NCBI GenBank assembly: GCA_040902745.1
Contig: JBBDWR010000014.1
Coordinates: 6,374 to 70,373, forward strand
DNA: 64,000 nt
Origin: Actinomycetota bacterium
Lineage (GTDB): Bacteria > Actinomycetota > UBA4738 > HRBIN12
Direction: 5' to 3'
The stretch's first letter is position 1. Each line of letters starts with the position of its first letter. Position numbers and translations under genes: made by a program. Below the pieces are notes generated by a model. It made no database searches, had not been told where the DNA came from, and saw only the letters and a list, made by a program, of their open reading frames with translations. Shown here piece by piece: positions 11,501 through 52,879 of the stretch.

Positions 11501-11540
11501 GCGTCGTGAGCAGGGCGTTCGCGTGGAGGCATCGTATACG

Positions 11541-12365: not shown

Positions 12366-12367
12366 CG

Positions 12368-20671: not shown

Positions 20672-20673
20672 GG

Positions 20674-27083: not shown

Positions 27084-27093
27084 GCTGGACGCG

Positions 27094-38381: not shown

Positions 38382-39725
38382 ATGACGAGCCAGGGGAACG
38401 AGGAGCGGATCCGCCGAGGGGCGGAAGAACTCGAGAAGCGCTGGGAGACCGACCCACGGTGGAGCGGCGCCGAGCGCAACTACTCTGCAGAGGAGGTCAT
38501 CCGCCTTCGGGGCTCCTTCTCGATCGAGCACACCGTCGCTCGACGCGGCGCCGAGATCCTGTGGGACCTCGTCAACTCAGAGGACTACGTCGCCGCCCTC
38601 GGCTGCCTGACCGGCGGCCAGGCGGTCGAGACCGTGAAAGCGGGGCTGAAGGCGATCTACCTGTCGGGATGGCAGGTGGCCGCGGACGCCAACCTCGCGG
38701 GACACACCTATCCCGACCAGTCGCTGTACCCGGCGAACTCCGTCCCCGCCGTCGTGAAGCGGATCAACAACGCCTTGCAGCGCGCGGACCAGATCGCATG
38801 GGGCGAGGGCAAGGGCGCCGACGTCAACTGGATGGCGCCGATCGTCGCGGACGCGGAGGCGGGCTTCGGTGGCACGCTCAACGCCTTCGAGCTGATGAAG
38901 AGCATGATCGAGGCCGGCGCAGCCGGCGTGCACTACGAAGACCAGCTTGCGAGCGAGAAGAAGTGCGGGCACTTGGGTGGCAAGGTGTTGATCCCGACCA
39001 ACGCGTTCGTCCGCACGCTGACCGCCGCACGCCTGGCCGCCGACGTGCTCGATGTGCCGACAGTGCTCGTCGCACGCACCGACGCCCTGGCCGCGACGCT
39101 GGTCACCAGCGACGTCGATCCCCGCGACAAGCGGTTCACAACCGGCAAGCGCACGCCGGAGGGCTTCTACTACGTGGACGAGGGGCTCGACGCGGCGATC
39201 GACCGCGGGATCAGCTACGCCCCGTATGCCGACATGTTGTGGTGCGAGACCAGCACGCCAGATCTCGAGGAGGCGCGGAAGTTCGCGGAGTCGATCCACG
39301 ACAAGTACCCGGGCAAGCTGCTCGCCTACAACTGCTCGCCATCGTTCAACTGGCGCAAGCACCTGGACGACGCGACGATCGCGAAGTTCCAGAAGGAGCT
39401 CGGCGCGATGGGCTACCGCTTCCAGTTCATCACGCTGGCCGGCTTCCACGCCTTGAACTCGAGCATGTTCGAGCTGGCCTACGGCTACGCACGCGAGGGC
39501 ATGACGGCCTACGTCGGCTTGCAGGAGCACGAGTTCGAGATGGAGAGCGACGGCTACACCGCGACGCGTCACCAGGCCGAGGTCGGCACCGGGTACTTCG
39601 ATCAGGTCTCACAGGTGATCACCAGCGGCGAATCCTCCACGCTCGCGCTCAAGGGGTCCACCGAAGAAGCGCAGTTCCTCGAAGAGGGAACGTCGCACCG
39701 CAAGGACATCGAACCCAAGCACTGA
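38382..39725 (+). CDS. aceA: isocitrate lyase
   Basis: 447 aa. ICL signature K(K)CGH(L) present as KKCGHLGGK. Conserved N-terminus and TIM-barrel motifs. Confidence 0.95.
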
Positions 39726-39752
39726 GGCATCGGCCCGCAGTAGGGTCACGGC

Positions 39753-41159
39753 GTGACCGAGCAAGCGCGGATCGTCGTGGTCGGGGCCGGACTGGCCGGC
39801 CTCGCGTGCGCATACCGGCTCTCGCAGGTGGGCGTGCACTCCGAGGTGTTCGAGGCCCGCGATCGGCTCGGCGGGCGGTGCTGGTCCGCGCCGGGGCTGA
39901 TCGACGGACAGGTGGCCGAGCACGGCGGCGAGTTCATCGATCCGGACCACGTGCATCTGCACCGGCTGATCGGCGAACTCGGTCTCGAACTCGAGGACCG
40001 GGGGACGGCCGGCAAGGCCGAGGGTCCGACCGACGGCGCCTTCGTCACCGAAGGTATGACCGTCCCGCGCGCAGCGGTGGATGCCGACGTGCCCGCCTTC
40101 GTTCGCGCACTGGAAGCTGACCTGCAACGAGCGGGCGAGGACTGGAGCCACGACCGCGCCGGCTCCGAGGCCAAGTCGCTCGACTCGATGTCCGCGCAGG
40201 TGTGGTTCGACGCGAACCTGCCGGATCCGTCGGGCCCGCTGGCCAAGATGCTGCGCACGCTCACGCTCAACATGTTCGGCGCTCCTCCCGAGCGGATCAG
40301 CTCGCTCGTGGTGCTGGAGTTGTTCGCCTCGTTGGCCGACGAGCCCGACGGCGGGTCGATCTTCGGATGGATCAGCCGAACGATGAACGGCACGACGCAC
40401 GTGCGCGGGGGCAACGATCTCGTCGTCTCGGGCATGGCCGATCGGTTGCCATCGGGATCGATCCACATCCGAACCCCGCTCGAGGTGCTCCGGCGCAGCG
40501 AGAACGGGCGTGTCGCCATGCGCTTCGGCGGTCTGGACGAGGAAGTCGTTGCCGATCGTGTCGTGCTCACGCTCCCGTTCACCGCGTTGCGCGAGGTCGC
40601 GATCGACGATGCGGGGCTGTCTCCCGAGAAGCTCGCGAGTATCCGCGAGCTCGGGATGGGTACCAACACCAAGCTTCTCCTGGGCATGCGGCGTCGGGTC
40701 GCCGCGCACGAGAGTTGGCGCGGATGGGCCGCGAAGGACGAGCCGGATCTGTTCGCGTGGGACACGACGATCGCGCAACCGGGAGCCTCCGCGATCCTGA
40801 CGGTGTTCACCGGGGAACGGGTCTTCGATGCCACCGATCCGCACGGTCCGCCTCCGGAGTCGGTCTTGCGTGAGGGCCTGGCCGCCGCGGATGTGATGGC
40901 GCCGGGACTCGCCGCGTCGGCGGGCGGCGTCGCTTGGCTCGACTCCTGGCCCGACGATCCTTGGAGCCGCGGCTCCTACGCCGTGTTCCTTCCCGGGCAG
41001 GTCACCCGATGGCTGGGCTTTCTCGGCCTGCCCGAGGGTCCCGTGCACTTCGCGGGGGAACACACCTCCACCACCGCGCAGGGCTACCTGGAGGGAGCGG
41101 TCGAGAGCGGGGAACGCGCGGCGCGTGAGGTTCAGGCCTCGGTCGGCATCCCCGCCTGA
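39753..41159 (+). CDS. flavin-containing amine oxidase (MAO/putrescine oxidase-like)
   Basis: GTG start. N-terminal FAD dinucleotide-binding motif RIVVVGAGLAGLACAYRL...EVFEARDRLGGR. C-terminal FAD-contact motif FAGEHTS. Confidence 0.8.
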   Translation: MTEQARIVVVGAGLAGLACAYRLSQVGVHSEVFEARDRLGGRCWSAPGLIDGQVAEHGGEFIDPDHVHLHRLIGELGLELEDRGTAGKAEGPTDGAFVTEGMTVPRAAVDADVPAFVRALEADLQRAGEDWSHDRAGSEAKSLDSMSAQVWFDANLPDPSGPLAKMLRTLTLNMFGAPPERISSLVVLELFASLADEPDGGSIFGWISRTMNGTTHVRGGNDLVVSGMADRLPSGSIHIRTPLEVLRRSENGRVAMRFGGLDEEVVADRVVLTLPFTALREVAIDDAGLSPEKLASIRELGMGTNTKLLLGMRRRVAAHESWRGWAAKDEPDLFAWDTTIAQPGASAILTVFTGERVFDATDPHGPPPESVLREGLAAADVMAPGLAASAGGVAWLDSWPDDPWSRGSYAVFLPGQVTRWLGFLGLPEGPVHFAGEHTSTTAQGYLEGAVESGERAAREVQASVGIPA

Positions 41160-41200
41160 TCCCGTCGGACGTTCGGCCGTCCGCGTGTCACCATCGACGG

Positions 41201-42130
41201 GTGGATCTTCCAGAACTCTTCGCCGTCGACGATGTCATCGTGATCGACGGAGGCATGTCGACCGCGCTCGCCGCGCGCGGAGTGGATCTGTCGGGCGAGC
41301 TGTGGACCGCCCGCGCCCTGCGAGACGATCCCGAGGCGGTGATCGCGGCACACCTGGATTTCCTCCGGGCGGGAGCGCGCGTCGTGATCACCGCGAGCTA
41401 CCAGTCCTCCCTCGAAGGACTGCGGCGCGTCGGGATCGGCGATGACGAAGCGCGCGCCCTGATCGCCAAGAGCGTCGAACTCGCTGCCGAGGCGCGGAAA
41501 AGGTTCGGCGCGGAGCGCCCGCAAGCGGGACCGGTGCTGGTTGCCGGATCCGTCGGGCCGTTCGGCGCGATGCTCGCGCAGGGTCAGGAGTTCACGGGCG
41601 ACTACGGCAATGACGTCGGCCGCGACGAGCTGATCGCCTTTCACCGGCCACGGGTCGAGTTGTTGCTGGACGCCGGCGCCGATCTGCTCGCGGTCGAAAC
41701 GATGCCGCGGGTCGATGAGGCAGCCGCGGTGCTCGAGGCGCTCCGCGAACGTCCCTGGGGACGGGCCTGGCTCAGCTTCACGGGCCGCAAAGGTCGGACG
41801 GCTGCGGGCGACCCGATCGAGGACGCCGCGCGGCTGGCGGACGCTTCGTCCCAGGTGGTGGCCGTCGGCGTGAACTGCACGCCGCCCGGAGAGGTGGCGG
41901 ACCTGTTGGGGAGGATCCGATCGGTGACGACCAAACCTCTGGTGGCCTATCCCAACGCCGGGGGGCGGTGGGACGCGGTCGCCAGGGCGTGGGCACCCGA
42001 ACCACGCGATCGCTTCGACGAGGACGAGGTTCGGAACTGGCTCCGCACGGGCGCGACCCTCGTGGGCGGCTGCTGCGGGATCGGGGTGCAAGGCGTTGCC
42101 GACGTCGCCGAATTCGTGCGTCACGGCTGA
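41201..42130 (+). CDS. homocysteine S-methyltransferase-domain protein (MmuM/BHMT/MetH Hcy-binding module)
   Basis: VIVIDGGMSTALAARG matches the DGG(L/M)(A/S)T motif of the S-methyl_trans (Pfam PF02574) fold. A zinc-ligand Cys pair, GGCCG, lies near the C-terminus. 309 aa. Confidence 0.75.
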   Translation: MDLPELFAVDDVIVIDGGMSTALAARGVDLSGELWTARALRDDPEAVIAAHLDFLRAGARVVITASYQSSLEGLRRVGIGDDEARALIAKSVELAAEARKRFGAERPQAGPVLVAGSVGPFGAMLAQGQEFTGDYGNDVGRDELIAFHRPRVELLLDAGADLLAVETMPRVDEAAAVLEALRERPWGRAWLSFTGRKGRTAAGDPIEDAARLADASSQVVAVGVNCTPPGEVADLLGRIRSVTTKPLVAYPNAGGRWDAVARAWAPEPRDRFDEDEVRNWLRTGATLVGGCCGIGVQGVADVAEFVRHG

Positions 42131-42302
42131 CGATCCGAATCTCACCATCTGTGTGACCGGCAGTCATGCTCTGCTCCGGATGACCTATTCCGGGGGTGAC
42201 CTTGCTGTCTGTATCATGAGCCCTCGTTTCTACGGGGTGTGACGTAACCCGCGGTCATCTTTTTGGCTCCCCACGCGACGAGCCGGAACGAAAGGCGCCG
42301 AC

Positions 42303-42956
42303 ATGGAATCCGATCTCGAAGTACTGCGGCGGGCGTTGATCGGCGCGGACCGCGATCTCGCTCTCGCCGCGACCAACCGCCTCGTCGACGACGGCACCGA
42401 TCCCACCGTGATCCTCGAGCGGGGCATGGCAGAGGCGATGTTCACGCTCGGCGAGATGTGGAAGCGGGGCGAGGTGTTCCTGCCCGAGGTCGTTGCATCG
42501 GCCGAGGTCTTCAAGCAGTGCAATGCGATCGTCGAGCCGGTGCTGCTCGCGCAGAAGTCGGGTGACGAGGAAGCCAACAAGCTGGTCGTGCTCGCCACCG
42601 TCAAGGGCGACCTGCACGACTTGGGCAAGAACATGGTCGCGGCGATGCTGCGCACGTCCGGGTTCGACGTCCACGATCTGGGCAAGAACACCAGCGCGGA
42701 CACGATCGTGAAGACGATCAACGAGTTGAGCCCGGACATCGTCGGTCTGAGCGCGCTGCTGACCACGACCGTCCCCTATCAGGAGACCGTCATCAAGGTG
42801 CTCGAGCGCGAAGGACTGCGCGACAAGGTCAAGGTGATGGTGGGCGGGGGCCCCGTGACACCGGAGTGGGCCGAGAAGATCGGGGCCGACGGGTACGCGA
42901 ACAACGCGCCCGAGGCCGTCGAGATCGCCAAGAAGCTGGTGGGGCTGTCGCAGTGA
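42303..42956 (+). CDS. cobalamin-binding corrinoid protein (MtbC/MtgC-like; B12-cap + Rossmann B12-binding)
   Basis: 217 aa. DxHxxG cobalamin-ligand motif GDLHDLGKN. N-terminal helical cap domain. A GGG loop at the C-terminus. Confidence 0.85.
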   Translation: MESDLEVLRRALIGADRDLALAATNRLVDDGTDPTVILERGMAEAMFTLGEMWKRGEVFLPEVVASAEVFKQCNAIVEPVLLAQKSGDEEANKLVVLATVKGDLHDLGKNMVAAMLRTSGFDVHDLGKNTSADTIVKTINELSPDIVGLSALLTTTVPYQETVIKVLEREGLRDKVKVMVGGGPVTPEWAEKIGADGYANNAPEAVEIAKKLVGLSQ

Positions 42957-43837
42957 GCGCCTTGTTCGGTTCCGTCGGCGACACCGTGCTCTCCGGCCCG
43001 GGCGGAGAGCTCCGGATCGGCGACGACCATCCGTTCGTCGTGATCGGCGAGCGCATCAATCCGACGGGGCGCAGCAAGCTGACGGAGCAGTTCGTCGCGG
43101 GGGACTATTCGCTGGCGAAGGCGGATGCGGTCGCGCAGGTCGAGGCGGGCGCGCGCGTGCTCGACCTGAACGCCGGGATCCCCGGCTACGACGAAGCCGA
43201 GATGCTCACCGCGCTCGTCCGGGCGGTGCACGAGGTCGTCCACGTTCCGCTGTGCATCGACTCGTCTACGCCCGAAGCGCTCGAAGCGGCGATCCCCGCG
43301 GCACAGGGCAAGGTGCTGATCAACTCGGTCACCGCCGAGCAGGAGTCGATGGATCGATTGCTGCCGCTGGTGGCCAAGCACGGAGCCGCCGTCGTCGGCA
43401 TGGCCAACGACGAGGAGGGCCCCTCGATGGATCCGACCGTCCGGCTCGCGTGCGCCCGCAAGATCGTCGAAACAGCCGCCGCCCACGGGATCGTCGCCGC
43501 CGACGTCGTGATCGACCCGATCGCGATGCCGATCGGCGCGGCTCCGGATGCGGCGACCGCGATGTACGAGACCGTTCGGCTGATCCGGACCGAGCTCGGG
43601 GTGAACACCTCCTGCGGGGCGTCGAACATCTCGTTCGGGATGCCCGACCGGCACGAGATCGACGCGGTGTTCTTGCCGCACGCGATCCTCGCCGGCATGA
43701 ACGCCGCCATCACCAACCCACTGCACCGGCCCGTACGCAAGGCGATCCTGGCAACGGACGTGTTGCTCGGGCGCGACGAGATGGCGATGGCCTGGATCAC
43801 CGCACATCGAGCCGAACTCGCGTCGGCGGAGGCATGA
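42953..43837 (+). CDS. pterin-binding methyltransferase (methyl-H4folate:corrinoid methyltransferase, AcsE/MtrH/MtgA-like)
   Basis: GTG start overlaps the upstream stop. TIM-barrel Pterin_bind features (VIGERINPTG, LDLNAG, INSV, GASNISFGMP), as in the MetH folate module. Confidence 0.8.
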   Translation: MSALFGSVGDTVLSGPGGELRIGDDHPFVVIGERINPTGRSKLTEQFVAGDYSLAKADAVAQVEAGARVLDLNAGIPGYDEAEMLTALVRAVHEVVHVPLCIDSSTPEALEAAIPAAQGKVLINSVTAEQESMDRLLPLVAKHGAAVVGMANDEEGPSMDPTVRLACARKIVETAAAHGIVAADVVIDPIAMPIGAAPDAATAMYETVRLIRTELGVNTSCGASNISFGMPDRHEIDAVFLPHAILAGMNAAITNPLHRPVRKAILATDVLLGRDEMAMAWITAHRAELASAEA

Positions 43838-43841
43838 TCGC

Positions 43842-45704
43842 GTGAGCCGCAAGCTCGAAGTCACCTACCTGCCGAGCGGCAAGACCGCACACGTGCCCGA
43901 GGGAACCTCGGTGTTCAACGCGGCGCACTGGGCAGGGCTGCCGATCGATTCCACGTGCGGCGGCCGGGGGACGTGCGGCAAGTGCAAGGTCCGGATCGTC
44001 GAAGGCGCCGGCGAACGGACGGTCGCCGACTACCGGCACGTCTCGAGCGAGGAGATGCAACAGGGGTGGCGCCTGGCGTGTCAGCAGGAGATCCACGAGG
44101 ACACGGCGTGCGACGTCCCCGCCCTGCTGCGCTCACCGAAGGCCGCGACGATGGGCGTGAACCGGTTCGTCTTGCTGGAGCCCAACGTGCAGAAAGTGCT
44201 GCTCGATCTCCCCGACGGAGCTCTCGAGGACGCACGCAGCCATATCCGTCGGATCCGCGAGACCCTGCTCGATGTCGAAGGCATCGAGATCGTTACCGCC
44301 CCGTCGGTGTTCCCGCGCATCCCGCGTGCGCTCGCGGACGAGAACACGCGGGTGACCGCCACCGTGGTGGGCGAGCACCTCGTCGACGTGGAGGCCGGCG
44401 ACACGCGAGAGCGGGTGTTCGGCATCTCCCTCGACATCGGGACCACCACCGTCGTTGCGACGCTGATCGACCTTCGCTCCGGCGCGGCCGCGGCGGTCGA
44501 GTCGACGATCAACCGACAGGCCCCCTACGGCGCGGACGTGATCGCGCGCATGGGACACGCGATGACCGGCGAGGACGCGATCGAGGAGCTGCGCGCCGCG
44601 ATCGTCGACACGGTGAACGGCTTGGTCGAGAGCGTCTGCTCGACCGCGGGCGTCGCGCGAGAGGATGTGTTCGAACTCGTCGCCGTGGGCAACGCCACGA
44701 TGCTGCACCTGCTTCTCGGGGTCGACCCCCGCTCCATCGCGCTCTCGCCGTTCGTGGCGACCTTCCTCGAGGCGCAGCAGGTCCGCGCCGCCGATATCGG
44801 CGTGCAGATCCATCCCGAGGGACGCGTCGATCTGTTCCCGTCGATCGGCGCTTACGTCGGGGCCGACATCGTCGGAGACATCGTTGCGACAGGGCTCGCA
44901 CGCGATCCGGAGAAGCGGCTGCTGGTGGACGTCGGGACCAACGGCGAGATCGCGCTCGGCAACGCGGACCGTGTGATCGCGACCTCGGCGCCTGCGGGTC
45001 CCGCGTTCGAGGGCGGGCAGATCCTGCACGGGATGCGGGCGACCGAAGGAGCGATCGAAGGTGTCGTGTTGGACGCCGACGGTGTGCACCTGCAGGTGAT
45101 CGGGGGCGACGTGACCCCGCGCGGGATCTGCGGCTCCGCGCTCATCGACATCGTGGCGCAGCTGCGGCTCACCGGACTGATCAAACCGAACGGGATCTTC
45201 GTCCCTCCCGAGGACCTCGTGGGACACCCCCTCGGGGATCGGGTGATCGATCGCGAAGGCATCCGCGCGTTCTTGCTCACCGACGACGTCGTGTTGACCC
45301 AGCTCGACATCCGCGCCCTCGCAGAGGCCAAGGCCGCGATCTCCACGGGGATCGAGGTCGTGATGGACCGGCTCGGTTTGCGCGCAGCGGACCTGGACGA
45401 GGTGATGCTCGCCGGCTCGTTCGGCACCTACATCAACCCCGCGAGCGCCCGGGTGATCGGGCTCGTGCCTGCGGTCCCCGTCGAGCGCATCAAGGCGGTC
45501 GGCAACGCGGCCAGCGAGGGTGCCAAGATGGCCCTGATGTCGTTCCGCGAACGCGAGGTCGCGTTCGAGCTTCCCGGGTTCGTCGAGTACGAGGAGCTTT
45601 CCGCGGTGGATGATTTCAACGATCGCTATATCCGTAACGTGGCCTTCCCACCGCTCGAGGCAGTCGGGGTCGAGCCGACGATCGACGTCGGAGGGGTTCG
45701 ATGA
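43842..45704 (+). CDS. corrinoid reductive-activation protein (RACo/RamA-like: N-terminal 2Fe-2S ferredoxin + ASKHA-fold ATPase, DUF4445)
   Basis: GTG start 5 nt after the upstream stop. Plant-type ferredoxin Cys motif CGGRGTCGKC...C. A long C-terminal ATPase-like domain. 620 aa. Confidence 0.8.
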   Translation: MSRKLEVTYLPSGKTAHVPEGTSVFNAAHWAGLPIDSTCGGRGTCGKCKVRIVEGAGERTVADYRHVSSEEMQQGWRLACQQEIHEDTACDVPALLRSPKAATMGVNRFVLLEPNVQKVLLDLPDGALEDARSHIRRIRETLLDVEGIEIVTAPSVFPRIPRALADENTRVTATVVGEHLVDVEAGDTRERVFGISLDIGTTTVVATLIDLRSGAAAAVESTINRQAPYGADVIARMGHAMTGEDAIEELRAAIVDTVNGLVESVCSTAGVAREDVFELVAVGNATMLHLLLGVDPRSIALSPFVATFLEAQQVRAADIGVQIHPEGRVDLFPSIGAYVGADIVGDIVATGLARDPEKRLLVDVGTNGEIALGNADRVIATSAPAGPAFEGGQILHGMRATEGAIEGVVLDADGVHLQVIGGDVTPRGICGSALIDIVAQLRLTGLIKPNGIFVPPEDLVGHPLGDRVIDREGIRAFLLTDDVVLTQLDIRALAEAKAAISTGIEVVMDRLGLRAADLDEVMLAGSFGTYINPASARVIGLVPAVPVERIKAVGNAASEGAKMALMSFREREVAFELPGFVEYEELSAVDDFNDRYIRNVAFPPLEAVGVEPTIDVGGVR

Positions 45705-46354
45705 CGACCACGGGCGCGCGGACGGCGTTCTTGGCATGCGGGGCACTCGCGAGAGAGACGCAGCAGCTGATCGCGATCAATGGCTGGGACGCGGACGTGC
45801 ACGGTGTGTCTGCGGTCCACCACCTGATGCCGCCACGCATCGTGGAGGACGTCGACCGTAAACTCGGCGATCTCACGCAGCGCTACGACAAGGTGATCGT
45901 CGTGTACGGGGATTGCGGCACGGGCGGGCGCCTCGACGATGTGCTGGCCAAGTACGGATCGGCGGTGCGGCCCGCGGGCGTGCACTGCTACCAGTGGTTC
46001 GCCGAGGACGACTTCGAGGCGATCAGCGAGGACATCGGCGTGTACTTTTTGACCGACTGGCTGGTTCGGGCATGGGAGTCGGCCGTGATCCGGGGACTCG
46101 GGCTCGACCGGTTCCCCTGGCTCAAGGACACCTACTTCGAGCACCTCACCCGGATCATCTACTTCCGTCAGGACCCCGACGAGGATCGGGCGCTGGAGAG
46201 CAAGGCTCGCGAGATCGCCGCGTTCGTCGGCAAGCCCCTGGAGATCCGCGACACGGGGCTCTCGCCGCTGCAATCGCTGCTTGCCCCCCTGTTCGACATG
46301 CAGATCGACGGGGGAGACGACGTGGAGTTGGAGGACGCCGATGTTCGACCGTGA
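45701..46354 (+). CDS. DUF1638 domain protein
   Basis: 217 aa. ATG overlaps the upstream stop, and its stop overlaps the mttB-like start. The association of this domain with methylamine methyltransferase loci is from memory. Confidence 0.6.
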   Translation: MTTTGARTAFLACGALARETQQLIAINGWDADVHGVSAVHHLMPPRIVEDVDRKLGDLTQRYDKVIVVYGDCGTGGRLDDVLAKYGSAVRPAGVHCYQWFAEDDFEAISEDIGVYFLTDWLVRAWESAVIRGLGLDRFPWLKDTYFEHLTRIIYFRQDPDEDRALESKAREIAAFVGKPLEIRDTGLSPLQSLLAPLFDMQIDGGDDVELEDADVRP

Positions 46355-47789
46355 CAGCGCACCCAAGATCCTGAGCGAGGACAACCTCGACGCGATCCAC
46401 GAGCACGCGATGCAGATCCTCGAGGAGATCGGGATGGACGTGATCCACGAACCCGCTCGCGACCTCCTCGCCAAGGAGGGACAGAAGATCGACGGGGAAC
46501 GCGTGCGATTCGATCGCGGTTGGATCGCCGAGCGGGTCGCGCAGGCTCCTTCCTCGTTCACCCTCCGAGCGCGTAACCCAGAGCGCAGCGTGGTGATCGG
46601 CGGCGGAACACCGGTGCTGACCAACGTCGGCGGCCCGCCGTTCTGCTCCGACCTGGACAACGGCCGGCGCAGCGGCACGATCGAGGATCACGTGCGCCTC
46701 GTGCAGCTCACGCAGGCGGCGGGGGCGCTGACGTGCGTGCAGAGCGGCGCGGTGGAACCGGTGGAGCTACCGGTGGAGACGCGGTCGCTGGACATGGACT
46801 ACTCGGTTCTGCGCTGGACGGACAAGCCGTTCACCGGCTACGGCACCAGCGGCGCCAAGTCCGTCGACGCGATCGAGATGGCGCGGATCGCGTGCGGCGG
46901 CACGGACGTTGTCGGCGACGATCCGGTGACGATGATCATCATCAACCCGAACTCTCCGTTGATCTGGGACACGCGGATGGCCGACGCGCTGATGCGCACC
47001 GCGGCGCAGAACCAGCCAACGGTGATCACGCCGTTCCTGCTCGCGGGGGCGACGTCGCCCGTGAGCGTCGCGGGAGCACTCGCGATCCAAGTCGCGGAGG
47101 CGCTCAGCGGCGTGGCGATCGCGCAGAGCGTGCGTCCGGGAGCGCCGTGCCTGTACGGATCGTTCTTCACCGCCACCGACATGCGGACCGGCTCGCCGGC
47201 GTTCGGGACGCCGGAGTCGGTGATCGGGATCCTCGCGGGAGCTCAGGTGGCCCGGCGCTACGGGCTGCCGTTCCGCGGTGGTGGCGGGCTGGCGTCGGCC
47301 AACTCCGTCGACGGGCAGGCGGCCGCGGAGACGCAGAACATGCTCTGGGCGACGATGCTCGCCGGGACCGACTTCGTGCTGCACGCGGCGGGATGGCTGG
47401 AGGGCGGGCTGTGCGCGTCGTACGAGAAGCTCGCGCTGGATCTGGAGCTGCTGTCGATCTTCGCGAAGCTCCGAGAGGGGATCGGCTTCAGCGAGGAAGA
47501 GTTCGGCTTCGACGCGTTGGCCGAGGTCGGTCCGGGCGGGCTGTTCCTCGGCTCCCCGCACACGATGAAGCACTTCAAGGAGTGGCTGTACATGTCGCCG
47601 CTTTTCCAGACACCGGACTTCGCGACGTGGGAATCCATGGAGTCCCTTACGGTGGCCGACCGCGCGAACGTCGCGTGGAAGCAGCTGCTGGAGGGATACG
47701 AGGACCCGGGACTGGACCCCGCGATCGACGAAGAGCTGCGCGAGTACATGGACAAGCGTAAGGCGGACCCACCCGAACCGGAGGACTGA
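46341..47789 (+). CDS. MttB-superfamily methyltransferase, non-pyrrolysine type (quaternary-amine/methylamine:corrinoid methyltransferase)
   Basis: 482-aa uninterrupted ORF with no internal amber codon. Its length and TIM-barrel pattern are characteristic of the trimethylamine methyltransferase family (Pfam PF06253). Translationally coupled to DUF1638. Confidence 0.8.
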   Translation: MFDRDSAPKILSEDNLDAIHEHAMQILEEIGMDVIHEPARDLLAKEGQKIDGERVRFDRGWIAERVAQAPSSFTLRARNPERSVVIGGGTPVLTNVGGPPFCSDLDNGRRSGTIEDHVRLVQLTQAAGALTCVQSGAVEPVELPVETRSLDMDYSVLRWTDKPFTGYGTSGAKSVDAIEMARIACGGTDVVGDDPVTMIIINPNSPLIWDTRMADALMRTAAQNQPTVITPFLLAGATSPVSVAGALAIQVAEALSGVAIAQSVRPGAPCLYGSFFTATDMRTGSPAFGTPESVIGILAGAQVARRYGLPFRGGGGLASANSVDGQAAAETQNMLWATMLAGTDFVLHAAGWLEGGLCASYEKLALDLELLSIFAKLREGIGFSEEEFGFDALAEVGPGGLFLGSPHTMKHFKEWLYMSPLFQTPDFATWESMESLTVADRANVAWKQLLEGYEDPGLDPAIDEELREYMDKRKADPPEPED

Positions 47790-47821
47790 GCGCCTTTCGG
47801 TCGGCGATGCTCGCCAGACCG

Positions 47822-47940
47822 TTGACGAGATCGCGGGAGGCTCTCGGGTCGCAGCGTCAACCTGTTGACGAACATTTCGTAAACGGGTTGACCGTATCGT
47901 GAGTGCGGGACAGGCGGGTGGCTCGTCAACAAGCTGACCG
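47822..47940. repeat. cluster of GTTGACG/CGTCAAC heptamers including two palindromic sites
   Basis: GTTGACG at 47822-47828. Palindrome CGTCAAC-ct-GTTGACG at 47856-47871. GTTGACC at 47888-47894. CGTCAAC-aa-GCTGACC at 47925-47940. All lie in a 177-bp convergent intergenic region. Confidence 0.5.
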
Positions 47941-47966
47941 GGCACGTGGCGGACCCTGCCCGGTCT

Positions 47967-48392
47967 TCAACCCTTGGTGATCTGGGCCTTCGCGCGCTCA
48001 ACGGCCATGCACCGATCCTCGACGTAGTCGATACCGGCTTCGTCCGCGATGCGCCGCGCGTCGTCGGAGACGATCCCCTGCTGGAGCCAGATCGCGTCCG
48101 TGCCGATCGCGACCGCTTGCCGGGCGACCTCCGCGGCGTCCTCGGACGGGCGGAACACATCGACCATGTCCACGTGCTCGGGGATGTCGGCGAGCGTCGG
48201 GTATGACTTCTCGCCGAACAGTTCATCGACGAGCGGGTTCACCGGGATGATCCGGAACCCGGCCGCCTGCATCGCCATCGGGACGGAGTGCGCGGACTTG
48301 TCCGGACTCCGAGAGGCGCCGACGACGGCGATCGTCGTCGACCTGCGCAGGATGCGCTCGGGGAGTTCCTCGTCGATCGCCATGCCGGTCAC
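47967..48392 (-). CDS. CoA-binding domain protein
   Basis: 141 aa. Rossmann-like motif IAVVGASRSPDKSAHSV typical of YccU/CoA_binding_2. Confidence 0.75.
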   Translation of the reverse strand: MTGMAIDEELPERILRRSTTIAVVGASRSPDKSAHSVPMAMQAAGFRIIPVNPLVDELFGEKSYPTLADIPEHVDMVDVFRPSEDAAEVARQAVAIGTDAIWLQQGIVSDDARRIADEAGIDYVEDRCMAVERAKAQITKG

Positions 48393-48432
48393 AACCTCCC
48401 GGATCCCCGGCGTGTTCCCCCGCCGGACCGGA

Positions 48433-49089
48433 TCAGCAACACCCGTGCCCGCGCCAGGTCAGGCGCGCCTCGCGGGTGATGTAGACGGCCATCGCGAGCG
48501 CGGCGACCGGGTCGGCCCACCACCAACCGAACAGCCCGTTGAGTCCGACGCCCACGAGCACGCCGAGGGAGAGCCACCAGCACGCCTCGGTCTGGAAGGC
48601 GTCCGCCTCGAGCGCATGCGAGTGCATCGCGGTCGCGACGCGGCGCTTCGCCCGGGCGAGCCACCACATCAGCGCCATCGACACGAGGGCAAGGACGATA
48701 CCGGCGATGCTGGGTTCCGGTTCCTCGCGTGCGACCAACGTCCGTACACCATCGAACGCGATCCACGCGGCCAGGGCGAAAAGGGACGCGGCGACCAGAC
48801 GTTGCGCGCGACGCTCGACCTGCGCGATGCGCAGCGCCTCGCCCGTGGAGCGCTCGGCGAGGAGCCGCCACACGATGACGCCGCCCGAAGCACTTTCCAC
48901 GAAGCTGTCGATACCGAACCCGAGGAGCGCGACGGATCCCGCGGCCACGGCGAGCGATACGCCCACGACCCCCTCCACCAGGTTCCATCCGATCGTCAGC
49001 GCCTCGAGCCCGAGGGCCCGGCGCAGAAGTGCATGCCGACCTGCGGAGCCGGGGACCGGAACCGGCGGTGACAGGGGATCGGTGGACAT
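48433..49089 (-). CDS. cation diffusion facilitator family membrane protein (TM domain only)
   Basis: 218 aa, about 6 TM helices, with Asp/His-containing TM motifs (GFGIDSFVESASG, HALEADAF). No C-terminal cytoplasmic domain. Confidence 0.6.
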   Translation of the reverse strand: MSTDPLSPPVPVPGSAGRHALLRRALGLEALTIGWNLVEGVVGVSLAVAAGSVALLGFGIDSFVESASGGVIVWRLLAERSTGEALRIAQVERRAQRLVAASLFALAAWIAFDGVRTLVAREEPEPSIAGIVLALVSMALMWWLARAKRRVATAMHSHALEADAFQTEACWWLSLGVLVGVGLNGLFGWWWADPVAALAMAVYITREARLTWRGHGCC

Positions 49090-49483: not shown

Positions 49484-51193
49484 ATGGCAGACGAGCAACA
49501 GCCACGACCACAGCGGACCAAGCCCCGTCCTCGAGGACAGGGCCAGTGGGGCCTGGGCTACCACGAGCCCCTGAACGTCGCCGAGCAGATCAAGAAGGAA
49601 GACGACGGCCTCAACGTTCGTGAGCGGATCGAGCGGATCTACGCGCAACAAGGGTTCCGCTCGATCACGAAGCAGGACCTGCGCAACCGCATGCGGTGGT
49701 GGGGGCTGTACACGCAGCGTCGCCAGGGCGTTCCCGGTGGACGGACGGGGTCGGCGGAGCCCGAGGAGCTCGAGGACGAGTTCTTCATGCTGCGGATCCG
49801 CATGTCCGGCGGGCTGCTGACCTCCGAGCAGCTGCGGGCGGTGGGCGAGATCTCCTCCCGCTACGGCAGGGACGTCGCGGACGTCACCGACCGCCAGAAC
49901 GTGCAGCTGCACTGGATCCGGATCGAAGACGTGCCTGCGATCTGGGAGCGGCTCGAGGGTGTGGGGCTGTCCACCCAGGAGGCCTGCGGCGATACGCCTC
50001 GTGTGATGCTCGGGTGCCCGCTGGCGGGGGTCGATCGAACCGAGATCCTGGACGCCACGCCGGCGATCTTGGAGACGGAGTCCCGCTACATCGGCGACCC
50101 GGCCTTCAGCAACCTGCCGCGCAAGTTCAAGACCTCCATCTCCGGCTGCCGTCAGCAGTGCGCGCAACACGAGATCAACGACGTGTCCTTCGTCGGCGTG
50201 GAACGCCCGGACGGTTCCACCGGGTTCGACCTGTGGGTCGGCGGCGGGCTGTCGACCAGCCCACACATCGCGCAGCGCCTCGGCGTGTTCGTCGAGCCGG
50301 CTCGCGTTCCCGACGTCTGGGCGGGGGTCACCGGCGCGTTCCGCGACTACGGGTACCGGCGCACGCGCAACCGCGCGCGACTCAAGTTCCTCATGGCCGA
50401 CTGGGGTGCCGAGCGGTTCCGTGAGGTGCTCGAGAAGGAGTACCTCCAGGGTGCGCTGCCCGACGGGGATGCTCCGCCCACCTCGCTTTCGGCGCAGCGC
50501 GACCACGTGGGCGTGTTCGAACAACACGACGGCAAGGTCTACGTGGGCTTCGCGCCCAAGGCGGGGCGCACCTTCGGGCACCAGCTTTCCCTGGTCGCCG
50601 ACCTTGCATCGGAGTTCGGACAGGGACGGATCCGCACGACCACGCAGCAGAAGCTCGTGATCCTCGACGTGGATCCCGGGCGCGCGGACGAGCTGGTTGC
50701 CGAGCTGGACAAGGTCGACCTGCGCGCGCGGCCGAGCACCTTCCGCAAGGGGATGATGGCCTGCACCGGGATCGAGTTCTGCAAGCTGGCGATCACCGAG
50801 ACCAAGGGCCGGGCCCAACAGCTCTACACCGAGCTCGAGGAGCGGATGCCGGACTTCGACGAGGAGATCCGCATCCACGTGAACGGTTGCCCGAACAGCT
50901 GCGCGCGCTTCCAGGTCGCCGACATCGGCCTGATGGGCTGCCAGCTCACGCGGCCGGACGGCACGCGCTCGGAGGGGTTCTTGATCCACCTGGGCGGTGG
51001 ACTCGGCGAGCAGCCGGGCTTCGGGCGCAAGGTCAAGGGCGTGCGGATCTTCGCGGAGGACGCGACCGACTACGTCGAATCGTTGCTGCGCCGGTACGGC
51101 CATCGGCGCAACGGGCACGAGAGCTTCGCCGGGTTCGTCCGGTCGCTGTCCGAGGAAGAGCTCGCGCGGTTCGCGAGACCGGAGGGCCGCTGA
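49484..51193 (+). CDS. sirA: ferredoxin-dependent sulfite reductase (NirA/SirA type, siroheme-[4Fe-4S])
   Basis: 569 aa. Nitrite/sulfite reductase ferredoxin-like half-domains. Cys cluster CTGIEFC...C and NGCPNSC siroheme/4Fe-4S ligands. Confidence 0.9.
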   Translation: MADEQQPRPQRTKPRPRGQGQWGLGYHEPLNVAEQIKKEDDGLNVRERIERIYAQQGFRSITKQDLRNRMRWWGLYTQRRQGVPGGRTGSAEPEELEDEFFMLRIRMSGGLLTSEQLRAVGEISSRYGRDVADVTDRQNVQLHWIRIEDVPAIWERLEGVGLSTQEACGDTPRVMLGCPLAGVDRTEILDATPAILETESRYIGDPAFSNLPRKFKTSISGCRQQCAQHEINDVSFVGVERPDGSTGFDLWVGGGLSTSPHIAQRLGVFVEPARVPDVWAGVTGAFRDYGYRRTRNRARLKFLMADWGAERFREVLEKEYLQGALPDGDAPPTSLSAQRDHVGVFEQHDGKVYVGFAPKAGRTFGHQLSLVADLASEFGQGRIRTTTQQKLVILDVDPGRADELVAELDKVDLRARPSTFRKGMMACTGIEFCKLAITETKGRAQQLYTELEERMPDFDEEIRIHVNGCPNSCARFQVADIGLMGCQLTRPDGTRSEGFLIHLGGGLGEQPGFGRKVKGVRIFAEDATDYVESLLRRYGHRRNGHESFAGFVRSLSEEELARFARPEGR

Positions 51194-51345
51194 TGGCCTC
51201 CGGTACCCCGCGCGCCGTTCCCTTCTACTGTCCGTTCTGCGGCGAGCAGGACCTCCGCCCGGTGGACCCGAGCGGGTGGCACTGCCAGATCTGCGACCGG
51301 AACTTCGACCTGAGCTTCACCGGACTCGGGGAGAACCCGCGATGA
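51193..51345 (+). CDS. small zinc-ribbon protein (CysX-like) between sirA and cysH
   Basis: 50 aa. ATG overlaps the sirA stop (ATGA), and its stop overlaps the cysH ATG. CPFC...CQIC four-Cys ribbon. Confidence 0.65.
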   Translation: MASGTPRAVPFYCPFCGEQDLRPVDPSGWHCQICDRNFDLSFTGLGENPR

Positions 51346-52226
51346 GTGCCAACGACCCGCACGAACCGATCCACGAACCGGCGTTGCCCGTCTTCGACGA
51401 GGAGGCGCGCACGATCCACGAGGCGGCCGATCGTTTCGAACACGCGAGCGCGCAGGAACTGCTCGCGTGGGCGCTCGAACGCTTCCACCCGAAGATGGCG
51501 ATCTCGGCCGCGGGTGGCGTAGACGGCATGGCGATCATCGACATGGCCTGGAAGATCAACCCCCAGATCCGTGTGTTCACCCTGGACACGGGCCGGCTTC
51601 CGCCGGAGACCTACGCACTGTTCGAGGAGATCCGCGAGAGGTACGCGATCAAGGTCGAGTTCGAGTTCCCGGAGCGCACCGCCGTAGAGCAGATGATGTT
51701 CGTGTCCGGGCCGAACCTCATGTACCGCAGCGTCGAGGACCGGCTGTCGTGCTGCGAGATCCGCAAGGTGGAGCCGCTCAAGCGCAAACTCGCCACGCTG
51801 GACGCGTGGGTCGCCGGGTTGCGCCGCGACCAGTGGAAGACACGCAAGGCGATCGCGAAGGTCGAGCTGGACCGCGACCACGGCGGCATCGTGAAGCTGA
51901 ACCCGCTGGCCGACTGGAGTCAGAACGAGGTGTGGGACTACGTCCGCAAGAACGAGGTCCCCTACCACGAGCTGTTCGACCACGGGTACAGCTCGATCGG
52001 CTGCATCCCGTGCACCCGCCCCGTGCAACCGGGCGAGGACGAACGCGCCGGCCGTTGGTGGTGGGAGCAGGACACCGACAAGGAGTGCGGCATCCACTGC
52101 TCCGTCCAGCTGCTCGGGACCAAGACCGACGGCGAACGCGAGCACGAACGGGCGGCGATCGATGCCGACGCACTGACTCAGCACTCCCCCGGCGGCGGTC
52201 CGTCCGAGCCCGGCGGGGAGGGATAG
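51342..52226 (+). CDS. cysH: adenylyl-sulfate/phosphoadenylyl-sulfate reductase (thioredoxin-dependent, Fe-S type)
   Basis: PP-loop-like motif ISAAGGVDGMAII. Catalytic ECGIH. Fe-S ligands CC...C..C, typical of actinobacterial APS reductases. Confidence 0.9.
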   Translation: MSANDPHEPIHEPALPVFDEEARTIHEAADRFEHASAQELLAWALERFHPKMAISAAGGVDGMAIIDMAWKINPQIRVFTLDTGRLPPETYALFEEIRERYAIKVEFEFPERTAVEQMMFVSGPNLMYRSVEDRLSCCEIRKVEPLKRKLATLDAWVAGLRRDQWKTRKAIAKVELDRDHGGIVKLNPLADWSQNEVWDYVRKNEVPYHELFDHGYSSIGCIPCTRPVQPGEDERAGRWWWEQDTDKECGIHCSVQLLGTKTDGEREHERAAIDADALTQHSPGGGPSEPGGEG

Positions 52227-52228
52227 TC

Positions 52229-52879
52229 ATGCCCTTCGGGTTCCCCGTGCTGCTGGAACTCGCTGAGCGCCCGGTCGTCGTGATCGGCGCCGACGCGGTG
52301 CGGGAGCGTCGGGTCCGTCAGTTGCTGGAGTCCGGCGCGACGGATGTGGTGGTGATCGTCGACGGCGATGTTGAGGTCGCCGAAGAAGCCGATGAGCGCG
52401 TGCACGTCCACCGGCGCGCGTGGCGTCCCTCGGACCTGGATGGTGCGTGCCTGTGTCTCGCCGCGTCTCGCGACGCGACGGAGCGGGGAGCGCTCGCGGC
52501 CGCGGCTCGGGAGCGGGGCGTGCTCGTGAACGTGAACGACGACATCCCACGGTGCGACTTCGCGATGCCGGCGATCGTGCGCCGCGGCGAGCTGCTGCTC
52601 GCGATCGGCACCGGCGGCGCGTCGCCAGCGCTATCGCGCAAGCTGCGCGAGGAGCTCGGCGGCCGGTTCGGGCCGGAGTGGGAGGAGATCCTCCGCGTGC
52701 TTCGCGAGGTGCGGGAGGAGACGATCGGCGCCCTTCCCGACTTCTCCGACCGGGCGCGGCGCTGGCGCGAGGCGCTCGACACCGACGAGGCGGAGAAACT
52801 CGTGAGCGCCGGACGCTCGGACGAGCTGGCCGACCGGCTGCGATCGCGCCTGCTCGCGGGTCGCGAGGAATCGTCGTGA
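52229..52879 (+). CDS. precorrin-2 dehydrogenase / sirohydrochlorin ferrochelatase (CysG N-terminal-like, SirC/Met8 type)
   Basis: NAD-binding Rossmann motif VVVIGADAVRERRV at the N-terminus. 216 aa. ATG lies 2 nt after the cysH stop. Confidence 0.8.
   Translation: MPFGFPVLLELAERPVVVIGADAVRERRVRQLLESGATDVVVIVDGDVEVAEEADERVHVHRRAWRPSDLDGACLCLAASRDATERGALAAAARERGVLVNVNDDIPRCDFAMPAIVRRGELLLAIGTGGASPALSRKLREELGGRFGPEWEEILRVLREVREETIGALPDFSDRARRWREALDTDEAEKLVSAGRSDELADRLRSRLLAGREESS

Follow-up and report, generated by a model that had tools for sequence, protein, structure and literature searches.

The window analyzed here, 64,000 nt of DNA from an uncultured Actinomycetota bacterium represented by a MAG, contains six consecutive plus-strand genes: a homocysteine S-methyltransferase (HMT) gene followed by genes for a corrinoid protein, a pterin-binding methyltransferase, a RACo-type activator, a DUF1638 protein and an MttB homolog. 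This arrangement raises the question of whether the six products form a single machine, a MetH-like methionine synthase split into separate proteins, as the earlier note on this DNA had proposed, or whether two distinct units lie side by side.

Organization and control of the locus

We found the six open reading frames where the earlier note had placed them, and all its domain assignments passed the Pfam gathering scores (Table 1). The close joining of five genes that it had described was confirmed at all four junctions: a GTGA overlap between the corrinoid gene stop and the GTG start of the pterin gene (42953-42956), a 4-nt gap before the RACo gene (43837 to 43842), an ATGA overlap between the RACo and DUF1638 genes (45701-45704) and a 14-nt overlap between the DUF1638 and MttB genes (46341 to 46354). 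GGAGG-like ribosome-binding sites are present 5' of the RACo, DUF1638 and MttB starts. These five genes are a translationally coupled unit (unit 1, 42303-47789), separated from the HMT gene by 172 nt (42131-42302). Sulfate-assimilation genes are found downstream, and isocitrate lyase and amine oxidase genes upstream of HMT. In our judgment, the locus quite probably consists of two independent units, the five-gene corrinoid operon and a separate MmuM-type HMT unit that goes with these upstream genes instead of with the operon.

Table 1. Features of the locus (positions in the window)
Feature	Positions	Strand	Evidence or remark
Flavin amine oxidase family protein, 468 aa	39753..41159	+	PF01593 188.5 bits; outside operon
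Unit 2: MmuM-type homocysteine S-methyltransferase (HMT), 309 aa	41201..42130	+	PRK09485; outside operon
Unit 1 including operators	42154-47789	+	-10-like element and paired palindromes of its own
Operator-like palindrome 1, TGACCGGCAGTCA	42154..42166	no strand	consensus TGAC[CT]-N3-[AG]GTCA
Candidate -10-like element, TATCAT	42212..42217	+	between the two palindromes
Operator-like palindrome 2, TAACCCGCGGTCA	42245..42257	no strand	one mismatch to the consensus
Corrinoid (cobalamin-binding) protein, MtgC/MtbC-like, 217 aa	42303..42956	+	PF02607 and PF02310
Methylcorrinoid:tetrahydrofolate methyltransferase (MtgA/MtgD/MeTr-like), 294 aa	42953..43837	+	PF00809, PRK07535
RACo-type ATP-dependent reductive activator of corrinoid proteins, 620 aa	43842..45704	+	Fer2, RACo_linker, Raco_middle, RACo_C_ter
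DUF1638 protein, 217 aa	45701..46354	+	DUF1638 Pfam 73.4 bits
Non-pyrrolysine MttB-superfamily substrate:corrinoid methyltransferase, 482 aa	46341..47789	+	PF06253 576.1 bits

The first palindrome starts 24 nt past the HMT stop codon and the second 91 bp after the first, the same spacing as in orthologs; the sequence of the second is identical in a 97% relative (L086). Across the fetched loci (1.39 Mb) the strict motif has 31 matches, almost all belonging to pairs with a spacing of about 91 bp that lie just 5' of the corrinoid gene; such pairs are present in 16 orthologous loci. Around the position of the -10-like element, orthologous upstream regions display CATCAT, TATCCT, TATCAT or TACACT (compared by eye, unaligned). 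A consensus sigma-70 scan returned no full promoter, and no riboswitch was found in the regulatory region of the operon. A TetR gene adjoins the operon in 9 related loci (half of them) and no TetR-family repressor gene occurs in this window; the two 13-bp palindromes would control operon expression, a TetR-family protein putatively acting as the repressor.

Proteins of the operon

The corrinoid protein scores 53.5 bits with the Pfam model B12-binding_2 and 106.7 bits with B12-binding, and contains the quoted His-on motif (DLHDLG, residue 103). With the NCBIfam models MtbC (193 bits) and MtgC (192 bits) it stays under both cut-offs; among PDB entries, it matches 1y80 (158 bits) and MttC 7xcn_M (152 bits). 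The pterin-binding methyltransferase reaches 103.7 bits with Pterin_bind and 299.3 bits with PRK07535 (cut-off 259), and matches MeTr 2yck (142 bits) and D. hafniense 4o0q (137 bits), which we take to be MtgA of this species.

The activator scores 39.7, 43.6, 188.3 and 244.5 bits with Fer2, RACo_linker, Raco_middle and RACo_C_ter, respectively, and carries the cysteines of an N-terminal 2Fe-2S ferredoxin (Cys39/45/48/80). It matches PDB 3zyy, presumably Carboxydothermus RACo, over nearly its full length (373.8 bits, residues 6-604 of 620), and the AcsV NCBIfam model with 438.8 bits, under the cut-off of 800. It shares the four-domain architecture of C. hydrogenoformans RACo and AcsV, but would serve a small methyltransferase corrinoid protein rather than the CoFeSP of the acetyl-CoA pathway. 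The DUF1638 protein, whose family co-occurs with RACo/RamA-like activators, is a putative accessory protein. As the earlier note had stated, the MttB gene has no in-frame amber codon: from the ATG at 46341 it comprises 482 sense codons and zero internal stops. Its product matches PDB 4yyc (411 bits), D. hafniense MtgB (9yce/2qne, 377 bits), which is its closest characterized relative, and the pyrrolysine-containing MttB 7xcl (124 bits).

Eighteen other loci of uncultured Actinomycetota have the order corrinoid protein, pterin methyltransferase, RACo, DUF1638, MttB, which is therefore far beyond a chance arrangement; it was seen in 15 genome loci whose MttB proteins are 61-70% identical as well as in L082, L084, L085 and L086 (83-97%). 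The same parts are also clustered in Dormibacterota and Alphaproteobacteria. This conservation supports a functional link between the five genes and, together with the domains, agrees with the earlier reading of a corrinoid methyl-transfer system with a non-pyrrolysine MttB donor methyltransferase, RACo and DUF1638.

Most likely, the five-gene system demethylates a betaine-like compound and hands the methyl group on to folate. The MttB homolog would bind an acidic quaternary amine (betaine) and methylate the Co(I) corrinoid protein, from whose methyl-Co(III) form the pterin-binding enzyme would carry the methyl group to tetrahydrofolate; methyl-H4folate would then enter C1 oxidation or assimilation. 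Cofactor oxidized to Co(II) would be re-reduced by RACo with its 2Fe-2S cluster and ATP, possibly assisted by DUF1638. Family memberships, gene order, conservation, operators and pocket residues were observed directly, and the direction of methyl flow, the substrate class and the roles of DUF1638 and the repressor are inferred.

Comparison with known systems

It no longer holds that all characterized systems belong to anaerobes. A split methionine synthase has been described in Phaeobacter inhibens by Price et al. 2018 (PMC5764234) and a glycine betaine demethylase/methionine synthase in Ruegeria pomeroyi by Mausz et al. 2025 (PMC12478193); the homologous system in aerobes is supported by genetics and proteomics, and the concept of a modular MetH is not new (PMC5764234, PMC12478193). 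The operon is of the MtgBCD, RamA and DUF1638 type already published for these two aerobes. A PF06253 MttB homolog, a B12-binding cap and domain protein, a pterin methyltransferase, a ferredoxin-DUF4445 activator and DUF1638 are common to both, as are a non-methanogenic bacterial host and H4folate as the proposed destination of the methyl group. On the other hand, the genes scattered in Ruegeria and Phaeobacter are here gathered in one coupled operon with TetR-type operators, the proteins are 31-55% identical to their alphaproteobacterial counterparts, the MttB pocket is without Tyr97 but carries Tyr167, the neighboring HMT is MmuM-type instead of MtgE/Bmt-type, and the host is an uncultured actinomycetote.

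A parallel can also be drawn with the anaerobic glycine betaine:H4folate methyl transfer by MtgB-MtgC-MtgA with RamA in D. hafniense, whose MtgB active site is described in PMC13080624. Both sets include a substrate methyltransferase, a corrinoid protein, a methylcorrinoid:H4folate methyltransferase and a reductive activase. The window system differs in phylum, in its DUF1638 protein and in a full RACo/AcsV-type activator with an N-terminal 2Fe-2S domain.

Is HMT part of the system?

If all six genes made one MetH-like machine, HMT would dock on the methylated corrinoid protein, and homocysteine and folate would both be fed. HMT does have the fold and zinc site of the MetH homocysteine domain (S-methyl_trans, 241.5 bits; the motifs quoted earlier are in place, with DGGMST at residue 16 and Cys226/Cys291/Cys292), it is the operon's neighbor both here and in the closest relatives L084, L085 and L086, sulfate-assimilation genes follow downstream, and in Proteobacteria MtgE, a separate PF02574 protein, is indeed a partner of MtgC and MtgD (PMC5764234, PMC12478193). 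However, HMT passes the MmuM equivalog model PRK09485 with 342.8 bits (cut-off 215) and fails the MtgE/BHMT model PRK07534 with 68.5 bits (cut-off 338). It shares the DGGxxT motif and the three zinc ligands with E. coli MmuM (YagD; PDB 5dml, 260 bits over 290 residues), from which its setting differs: no transporter gene adjoins it and the corrinoid operon follows instead. Where a homocysteine module is clustered with MttB or corrinoid genes, it is of the MtgE type in 13 out of 13 loci, including the Actinomycetota loci L069, L022 and L050, and these proteins are just 27-29% identical to the window HMT.

Position argues in the same direction, HMT lying upstream of the operators and outside the unit that they would control. 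In the window it comes 41 nt after the amine oxidase gene; among the window and its relatives, 35-41 nt separate it from the upstream gene and 172-213 nt, including the operators, from the corrinoid gene. Of the genes in this region it is the one that has diverged most from L084/L085, with 69-70% identity against 81-92% for the others. The earlier note had itself held that orthologous loci without HMT would point to chance adjacency; none of the 15 with 61-70% MttB identity has HMT, and by that reasoning the adjacency would be without function. Because the whole HisG-to-CysH region is syntenic in the close relatives, adjacency there reflects shared ancestry and is not independent evidence; a functional link between HMT and the operon that is confined to this lineage is conceivable. 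A single six-gene machine thus seems to us highly improbable. Of the two methyl routes proposed earlier, that into the H4folate pool is the likely one, given the methylcorrinoid:H4folate methyltransferase, and the direct one to homocysteine is not supported, HMT being MmuM-type.

HMT is predicted to be an ordinary S-methylmethionine-dependent, cobalamin-independent enzyme of this type, which would form methionine from S-methylmethionine or AdoMet. Its homologs at about 50% identity have unrelated neighborhoods; one in Gaiellales overlaps an MFS transporter gene, reminiscent of mmuP-mmuM, which we take to be the transporter and MmuM gene pair of E. coli. The amine oxidase, earlier suggested to process the demethylated amine, is rarer beside the operon than HMT: it is confined to the window's own lineage and absent from L084 and all more distant orthologous loci. 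Its best PDB relatives (85-97 bits) are L-amino-acid oxidase, 4-methylaminobutanoate oxidase and putrescine oxidase.

One could also assume, compatibly with the two-unit reading and as an addition to it, that the operon has a dual use as in Ruegeria pomeroyi. Corrinoid protein, pterin methyltransferase, RACo and DUF1638 would then also run in reverse as a methionine synthase, from methyl-H4folate over Co to homocysteine, the gene for an MtgE-type partner lying at another place in the genome. MetH is absent from about 70% of the marine genomes that have MtgBCD (PMC12478193), neither MetH nor MetE is found among the roughly 39 of about 55 candidate genes scanned (those outside 56-64 kb), and MtgE-type genes do occur in the other Actinomycetota named above. 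We nevertheless regard this as unlikely, since no MtgE-type gene is present in the window or within 10 kb of the 15 close orthologous operons, and a catabolic MttB gene under operator control is more in keeping with an inducible catabolic unit than with a housekeeping one.

The substrate pocket of the MttB homolog

The pocket residues of the MttB homolog are G97, R312, H348, W352 and G356. R312 and H348, which bind the carboxylate in D. hafniense MtgB, are kept, but two of the four glycine-betaine-binding residues are replaced (Y97G and F356G); in MtgB these four are considered by the authors the minimum set for glycine betaine use, and Y97A and F356L raise the Km several-hundred-fold (PMC13080624). 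At 18 positions, one of them the gain S167Y, this clade departs from every Y97-type homolog, and eight of the 18 map to C-terminal ends of the predicted barrel strands (P about 9e-6). Because the pocket is remodeled (Y97G, S167Y, G356) with R312 and H348 kept, the substrate is probably an acidic quaternary amine, betaine-like, which need not be glycine betaine. The betaine class would rest on these two residues, of which H348 had also been part of the pattern by which the loci were gathered. This remodeled pocket in an Actinomycetota clade is the new, if modest, part of our analysis.

That the protein is a true MtgB, a glycine betaine methyltransferase in spite of its pocket, is possible, although we lean against it in view of the replaced residues and the clade-specific positions. 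Scanning roughly 39 of about 55 candidate window genes (those outside 56-64 kb) revealed no gene for a betaine transporter and none for dimethylglycine or sarcosine. In its favor, MtgB is the closest characterized relative, W352 could give a cation-pi contact beside the conserved R312 and H348, and glycine betaine is the genetically shown substrate of the aerobic proteobacterial system (PMC12478193). Moreover, in the Gaiellales-type loci L020 and L022 the MttB gene is followed by a TMADH/DgcA-like flavoprotein gene, as it is, judged by size and position, in L021, and such a flavoprotein could demethylate dimethylglycine.

Organization and assignment of the six genes

The DNA studied comes from a metagenome-assembled genome (MAG) of an uncultured Actinomycetota, and many ORFs in the window are spurious because its G+C content, counted per 2 kb, is 65-71% throughout. 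The six plus-strand ORFs singled out in the earlier note have a third-position G+C of 0.83-0.91, which is a composition of coding type. Their products all scored above the gathering thresholds of the Pfam profiles that the note had proposed as a check (6/6), and the motifs it had quoted were found again, i.e. DGGMST and a Cys-Cys pair in the homocysteine methyltransferase (HMT) and DLHDLG at residue 103 of the corrinoid protein. The ORF of the MttB homolog runs through 482 sense codons without an internal stop. The last five genes are tightly joined (GTGA, a 4-nt gap, ATGA and a 14-nt overlap, in this order), with GGAGG-type ribosome-binding sites ahead of the RACo, DUF1638 and MttB starts, and 172 nt lie between them and the first gene, encoding HMT.

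Positions in the window of the six genes and of the elements preceding the corrinoid gene, with Pfam matches and closest solved relatives (scores in bits)
Feature	Position	Strand	Pfam match	Solved relatives (PDB)
HMT	41201-42130	+	S-methyl_trans (PF02574) 241.5	E. coli MmuM (5dml) 260, residues 6-295
Palindrome copy 1, perfect	42154-42166
-10-like TATCAT	42212-42217
Palindrome copy 2, one mismatch	42245-42257
Corrinoid protein	42303-42956	+	B12-binding_2 (PF02607) 53.5; B12-binding (PF02310) 106.7	1y80 158; MttC (7xcn_M) 152
Pterin protein	42953-43837	+	Pterin_bind (PF00809) 103.7	MeTr (2yck) 142; D. hafniense 4o0q 137
RACo	43842-45704	+	Fer2 and three RACo domains 39.7, 43.6, 188.3, 244.5	3zyy 373.8, query residues 6-604 of 620
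DUF1638	45701-46354	+	PF07796 73.4
MttB homolog	46341-47789	+	MTTB (PF06253) 576.1	4yyc 411; D. hafniense MtgB (9yce/2qne) 377; Pyl-MttB (7xcl) 124

The predicted functions of the proteins of the five-gene block fit their relatives of solved structure, among them 3zyy, which we take to be the Carboxydothermus RACo, and 4o0q, presumably D. hafniense MtgA. The pterin protein passes the NCBIfam model PRK07535 (299.3 bits for a cut-off of 259), and the corrinoid protein reaches about 192 bits on each of the MtgC and MtbC models, under their cut-offs of 310-370. None of the six proteins matches PF02965, the AdoMet reactivation domain of the multidomain MetH, and their scores on the MetH model TIGR02082 are 73-143 bits for a cut-off of 1010.85. 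Exact-sequence searches gave no contig for the MttB and RACo proteins, and for the corrinoid protein only one of 4 kb from the same organism.

Conservation of the five-gene block

Scanning a collection of genomes with aligned MttB relatives gave 80 loci, numbered here L0xx and all derived from MAGs. Fifteen of them, from uncultured Actinomycetota, encode MttB proteins 61-70% identical to that of the window; at least one part is cut off or undetected in five of these 15, and the order corrinoid protein, pterin protein, RACo, DUF1638, MttB, on one strand, is found in those with enough upstream sequence. The same order is kept in L082 (83% MttB identity), L084 and L085 (84%) and L086 (97%), the last of which has frameshifts typical of long-read errors. 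RACo and DUF1638 genes are co-located with the system in 18 Actinomycetota loci and also in loci from Dormibacterota and Alphaproteobacteria. The arrangement varies in these other groups: in Dormibacterota the four partner genes are convergent and downstream of MttB, and the components of the system are dispersed over about 10 kb in Alphaproteobacteria and an Ilumatobacteraceae MAG. Judged by these comparisons of gene order, the five genes are conserved as a unit.

A control region between the HMT and corrinoid genes

The 190 nt upstream of the orthologous corrinoid genes contain a 13-bp palindrome, TGAC[CT]-N3-[AG]GTCA, which occurs in pairs whose starts are 88-95 bp apart, mostly 90-92 bp, and which flank a -10-like hexamer (CATCAT, TATCCT, TATCAT or TACACT). 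The strict motif has 31 matches in the 1.39 Mb of fetched loci, nearly all of them being the pairs of 16 orthologous loci. A TetR-family gene adjoins the system in nine loci, divergently in eight of them and after MttB in L025; neither the window nor the loci of its closest relatives contain a TetR homolog. From this position and co-occurrence, we infer that the palindromes are operators of a TetR repressor. Scans of 39500-48500 revealed no consensus sigma-70 promoter and only two terminator-like sites, both intragenic and fewer than expected by chance. The spacer between HMT and the corrinoid gene has no riboswitch: Rfam gave no match at the gathering threshold over the whole window and none at E <= 1 over 42080-42360. 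The five-gene operon has its own control region, and this region sits downstream of HMT.

The homocysteine methyltransferase is of the MmuM type

HMT was proposed in the earlier note as the homocysteine module of a MetH-like machine, and this reading is not supported. HMT passes the NCBIfam equivalog PRK09485 for homocysteine S-methyltransferase with 342.8 bits (cut-off 215) but reaches only 68.5 bits on PRK07534, the betaine-homocysteine/MtgE model (cut-off 338), and 73 bits on the MetH model. Its best solved relative is the E. coli MmuM, and its zinc site comprises three cysteines, Cys226 (GVNCTPP) and Cys291/Cys292 (GGCCG), as in the MmuM type. Apart from five close relatives, the homologs share 46-54% identity with it and come from Streptomyces, Kitasatospora, Gaiellales, Chloroflexota and Citrobacter (46%), where they are named homocysteine or S-methylmethionine:homocysteine methyltransferase (e.g. 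in Streptomyces). Three such homologs of about 50% identity lie in unrelated neighbourhoods, one of them overlapping an MFS transporter gene. A metagenome scan with HMT alone, whose patterns were too specific, gave no relatives.

PF02574 proteins of another type do occur beside MttB and corrinoid genes. They are encoded in 13 loci, including Alphaproteobacteria, a Roseiflexaceae MAG, the Ilumatobacteraceae locus L069 and the Gaiellales loci L022 and L050, and all are of the MtgE type; two of them were scored on PRK07534 (577.5 bits for L066 and 490.7 bits for L069), and their identity to the window HMT is 27-29%. No homocysteine module of either type is present in the flanks of the 15 orthologous loci with 61-70% MttB identity. 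The lesson for annotation is that a PF02574 gene beside corrinoid genes needs to be checked for MmuM versus MtgE type before being called a methionine-synthase module.

Adjacency of HMT to the operon is kept only in relatives with at least 84% MttB identity (L084, L085 and L086). Since the entire region from HisG and isocitrate lyase to sulfite reductase and CysH is syntenic between them and the window, this adjacency reflects shared ancestry and provides no independent evidence. In keeping with this, HMT has diverged most among the genes compared between the window and L084/L085 (69-70% identity versus 81-92% for the others). It begins 35-41 nt after its upstream gene, and 172-213 nt, with the operators inside, separate it from the corrinoid gene. 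In L084 (4062-6367) the MmuM-type gene starts 35 nt after isocitrate lyase; in the window (38382-42130) an amine oxidase gene lies between the two, with gaps of 27 and 41 nt, so that HMT may be co-transcribed with isocitrate lyase. At the start of L082 (1-1735), the 83% relative, no HMT is seen upstream of the operators and the L084 gene gives no more than faint traces in tblastx; as the scaffold has runs of N, the apparent absence may stem from loss, decay or misassembly.

Relation to known corrinoid systems

The central idea of the earlier note was a split MetH-like machine made of six genes, and the modular MetH part of this idea is already known. The methionine synthase reported by Price et al. 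(2018) consists of separate PF02574, PF00809 and B12-binding proteins, with a ferredoxin-DUF4445 protein and a DUF1638 protein for its reactivation (PMC5764234). Moreover, the statement that only anaerobic systems had been characterised is superseded by the work of Mausz et al. (2025) on the aerobic R. pomeroyi, where MtgC and MtgD have a dual role: they take part in glycine betaine demethylation together with MtgB, a member of the MttB family, and make methionine together with MtgE (PMC12478193). About 5% of marine mtgC reads were found to be actinomycetotal (PMC12478193). The MtgE/Bmt of P. inhibens also uses betaine and DMSP directly, as found in two later studies that build on these results, a preprint of 2025 and an article in FEBS J, with the E. 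coli MmuM as the S-methylmethionine-dependent control (10.64898/2025.12.19.695462; PMC12366255).

All components of an MtgBCD-type system are present in the window: an MttB protein without pyrrolysine, a corrinoid protein with B12 cap, Rossmann domain and DxHxxG motif, a pterin methyltransferase, and RACo with DUF1638. The MttB homolog would demethylate an acidic quaternary amine and load the methyl group onto the Co(I) of the corrinoid protein, from which it would pass to tetrahydrofolate; RACo with DUF1638 would rescue the oxidised cofactor. As far as sequence comparison can tell, HMT is probably a separate, cobalamin-independent MmuM enzyme and the five other genes an inducible catabolic operon, both statements being taken together.

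[quoted passage not shown] However, HMT is not an MtgE/Bmt-type module, and across genomes the 15 orthologous loci show no association of a homocysteine module with the corrinoid genes, which makes a split MetH in this one locus highly unlikely. One could also assume that an MmuM-type HMT has been recruited, only in a shallow Actinomycetota lineage, as acceptor module for the methyl group of the adjacent corrinoid protein. Such a recruitment would combine, in one locus, a betaine demethylase and a split methionine synthase whose homocysteine module belongs to a family other than the proteobacterial MtgE; we hold it to be very improbable. Less remote, but still doubtful, is that the corrinoid and pterin proteins have a second task in making methionine, in partnership with an MtgE-type protein whose gene lies outside this locus, a dual use of the kind described in R. 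pomeroyi. We thus retain a catabolic operon beside an independent MmuM gene as the preferred reading. B12-dependent demethylation of the MtgBCD type, lately recognised in aerobic marine Proteobacteria, would then also be present in uncultured Actinomycetota, encoded there by a compact operon under operator control, with related operons in Dormibacterota; MAG names suggest that many of the Actinomycetota hosts come from soil surveys. The conserved operator pair and the clade-specific pocket of the MttB homolog are the sole new features of the finding.

The substrate pocket of the MttB homolog

With 283.1 bits on TIGR02369 (cut-off 525) and no in-frame UAG, the MttB homolog is not a pyrrolysine MttB. 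The D. hafniense MtgB binds glycine betaine via four residues, Y97 and F356 by cation-pi interactions and R312 and H348 at the carboxylate, and the Y97A and F356L mutations raise the Km several-hundred-fold (PMC13080624). In ungapped HMMER alignments to 9yce, the MttB homolog has G97, R312, H348 and G356, with W352 near, and so departs from the Y97/R312/H348/F356 motif of MtgB sensu stricto; H348 and W352 fall within the search pattern LHAAGWLE, their conservation among the fetched loci being partly by construction. G97 is invariant in the loci of the Actinomycetota clade (32/32), and a tyrosine is found at this position in Dormibacterota, Chloroflexota and alphaproteobacterial homologs.

Comparison of 33 G97-type with 47 Y97-type sequences gave 18 discriminating positions, including F34V, Y97G, G134Q, T136G, S167Y, V168G and Q282R. 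The barrel has eight strands, and eight of the 18 positions fall at -1 to +2 residues from a strand's C-terminal end, a zone that makes up 6.6% of the protein (binomial P of about 9e-6), the strands being those of an AlphaFold model with a mean pLDDT of 80.1 and low values in residues 234-241, 350-356 and 382-432. This clustering at the strand ends of the model argues that the catalytic face of the barrel is remodelled, with an aromatic residue lost at 97 and another gained at 167. Because all characterised members that use acidic quaternary amines share R312 (PMC13080624), the substrate would by analogy be of the betaine type. We tentatively propose, as a possibility of slightly less than even weight, that the G97/Y167 clade acts on a quaternary amine to which no MttB-family enzyme has been assigned so far. 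The rebuilt pocket in any case marks the clade as a candidate for a new substrate specificity, of which only about half a dozen have been assigned in the MttB superfamily.

Several neighbourhoods of MttB genes deserve mention. In the Gaiellales-type loci L020 (11426-13504) and L022 (11446-13542), no corrinoid genes adjoin the MttB gene of the G97 clade, and directly after it comes the gene of a flavoprotein of about 690 aa with Oxidored_FMN and Pyr_redox_2 domains; an ORF of L021 (11420-13480) matches it by size and position only. This flavoprotein belongs to the family of trimethylamine dehydrogenase and tertiary-amine demethylases, which hints at a tertiary N-methyl amino acid as the demethylation product. 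L022 (14962-20144) and L050 (14705-20163) encode a second MttB paralog of the Y97 type, 41-42% identical, with genes for an MtgE-type homocysteine methyltransferase and a corrinoid protein nearby, which looks like a separate MtgB/C/E-like cluster within Actinomycetota. Finally, a CarH-like regulator (MerR-HTH and B12-binding domains) is encoded immediately downstream of MttB on the opposite strand in L004 (11463-12404, minus strand), and an ORF of L011 agrees with it in size and position.

DUF1638

The DUF1638 protein has no sequence relative in the PDB. An AlphaFold model built from 37 sequences is confident, with a pLDDT of 89.9 and a pTM of 0.85, and the invariant residues include C13, H34, H41, D71-C72, H95-C96, W99, D119, R137 and R156, which, speculatively, would suit a metal or cofactor site. 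The only functional evidence on this family comes from the genetics of P. inhibens, in which the DUF1638 and RamA-like genes share the methionine-rescued fitness pattern of the split methionine synthase; the two families co-occur across Alphaproteobacteria (PMC5764234).

Neighbouring genes and other features of the window

The PF01593 amine oxidase gene upstream of HMT had been proposed to process the demethylated amine. It is present in the window and L086 only, being absent from L084, where HMT directly follows isocitrate lyase, and from every other locus, and its nearest solved relatives score only 85-97 bits, all of which speaks against this role. We also discarded the downstream sulfate-assimilation genes as a sign of a role in methionine synthesis, these being neighbours in the shallow clade only, where the whole region is syntenic. 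They form a cluster of sulfite reductase, PAPS/APS reductase and tetrapyrrole methylase (siroheme) genes at 49484-53640, with which both L082 and L084 show synteny.

The 177 nt that separate MttB from a convergent CoA-binding gene contain, at 47856-47938, a 14-bp palindrome, GTCAAC-NN-GTTGAC, in three copies (a perfect one at 47856 and ones with a single mismatch at 47879 and 47925), and a half-site at 47821; 0.08 matches per window would be expected by chance. The motif is absent from L082 and L084-L086, where extra genes occupy the position of the spacer. Elsewhere, the window carries the conserved actinobacterial cluster of FhaA, PP2C phosphatase, RodA/FtsW, PBP transpeptidase and PASTA Ser/Thr kinase (19847-27083). 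After it come a ThyX-family ORF of unusual length as called (26986-28704; 572 aa with two Thy1 stretches) and, further on, genes for histidine biosynthesis. An AIR-carboxylase-like gene abuts a nickel-insertion (LarC-type) gene at 11361-13588, which suggests nickel-pincer cofactor synthesis, and 4836-7829 encodes a 997-aa protein made mostly of PAS domains (seven PAS_3 stretches).
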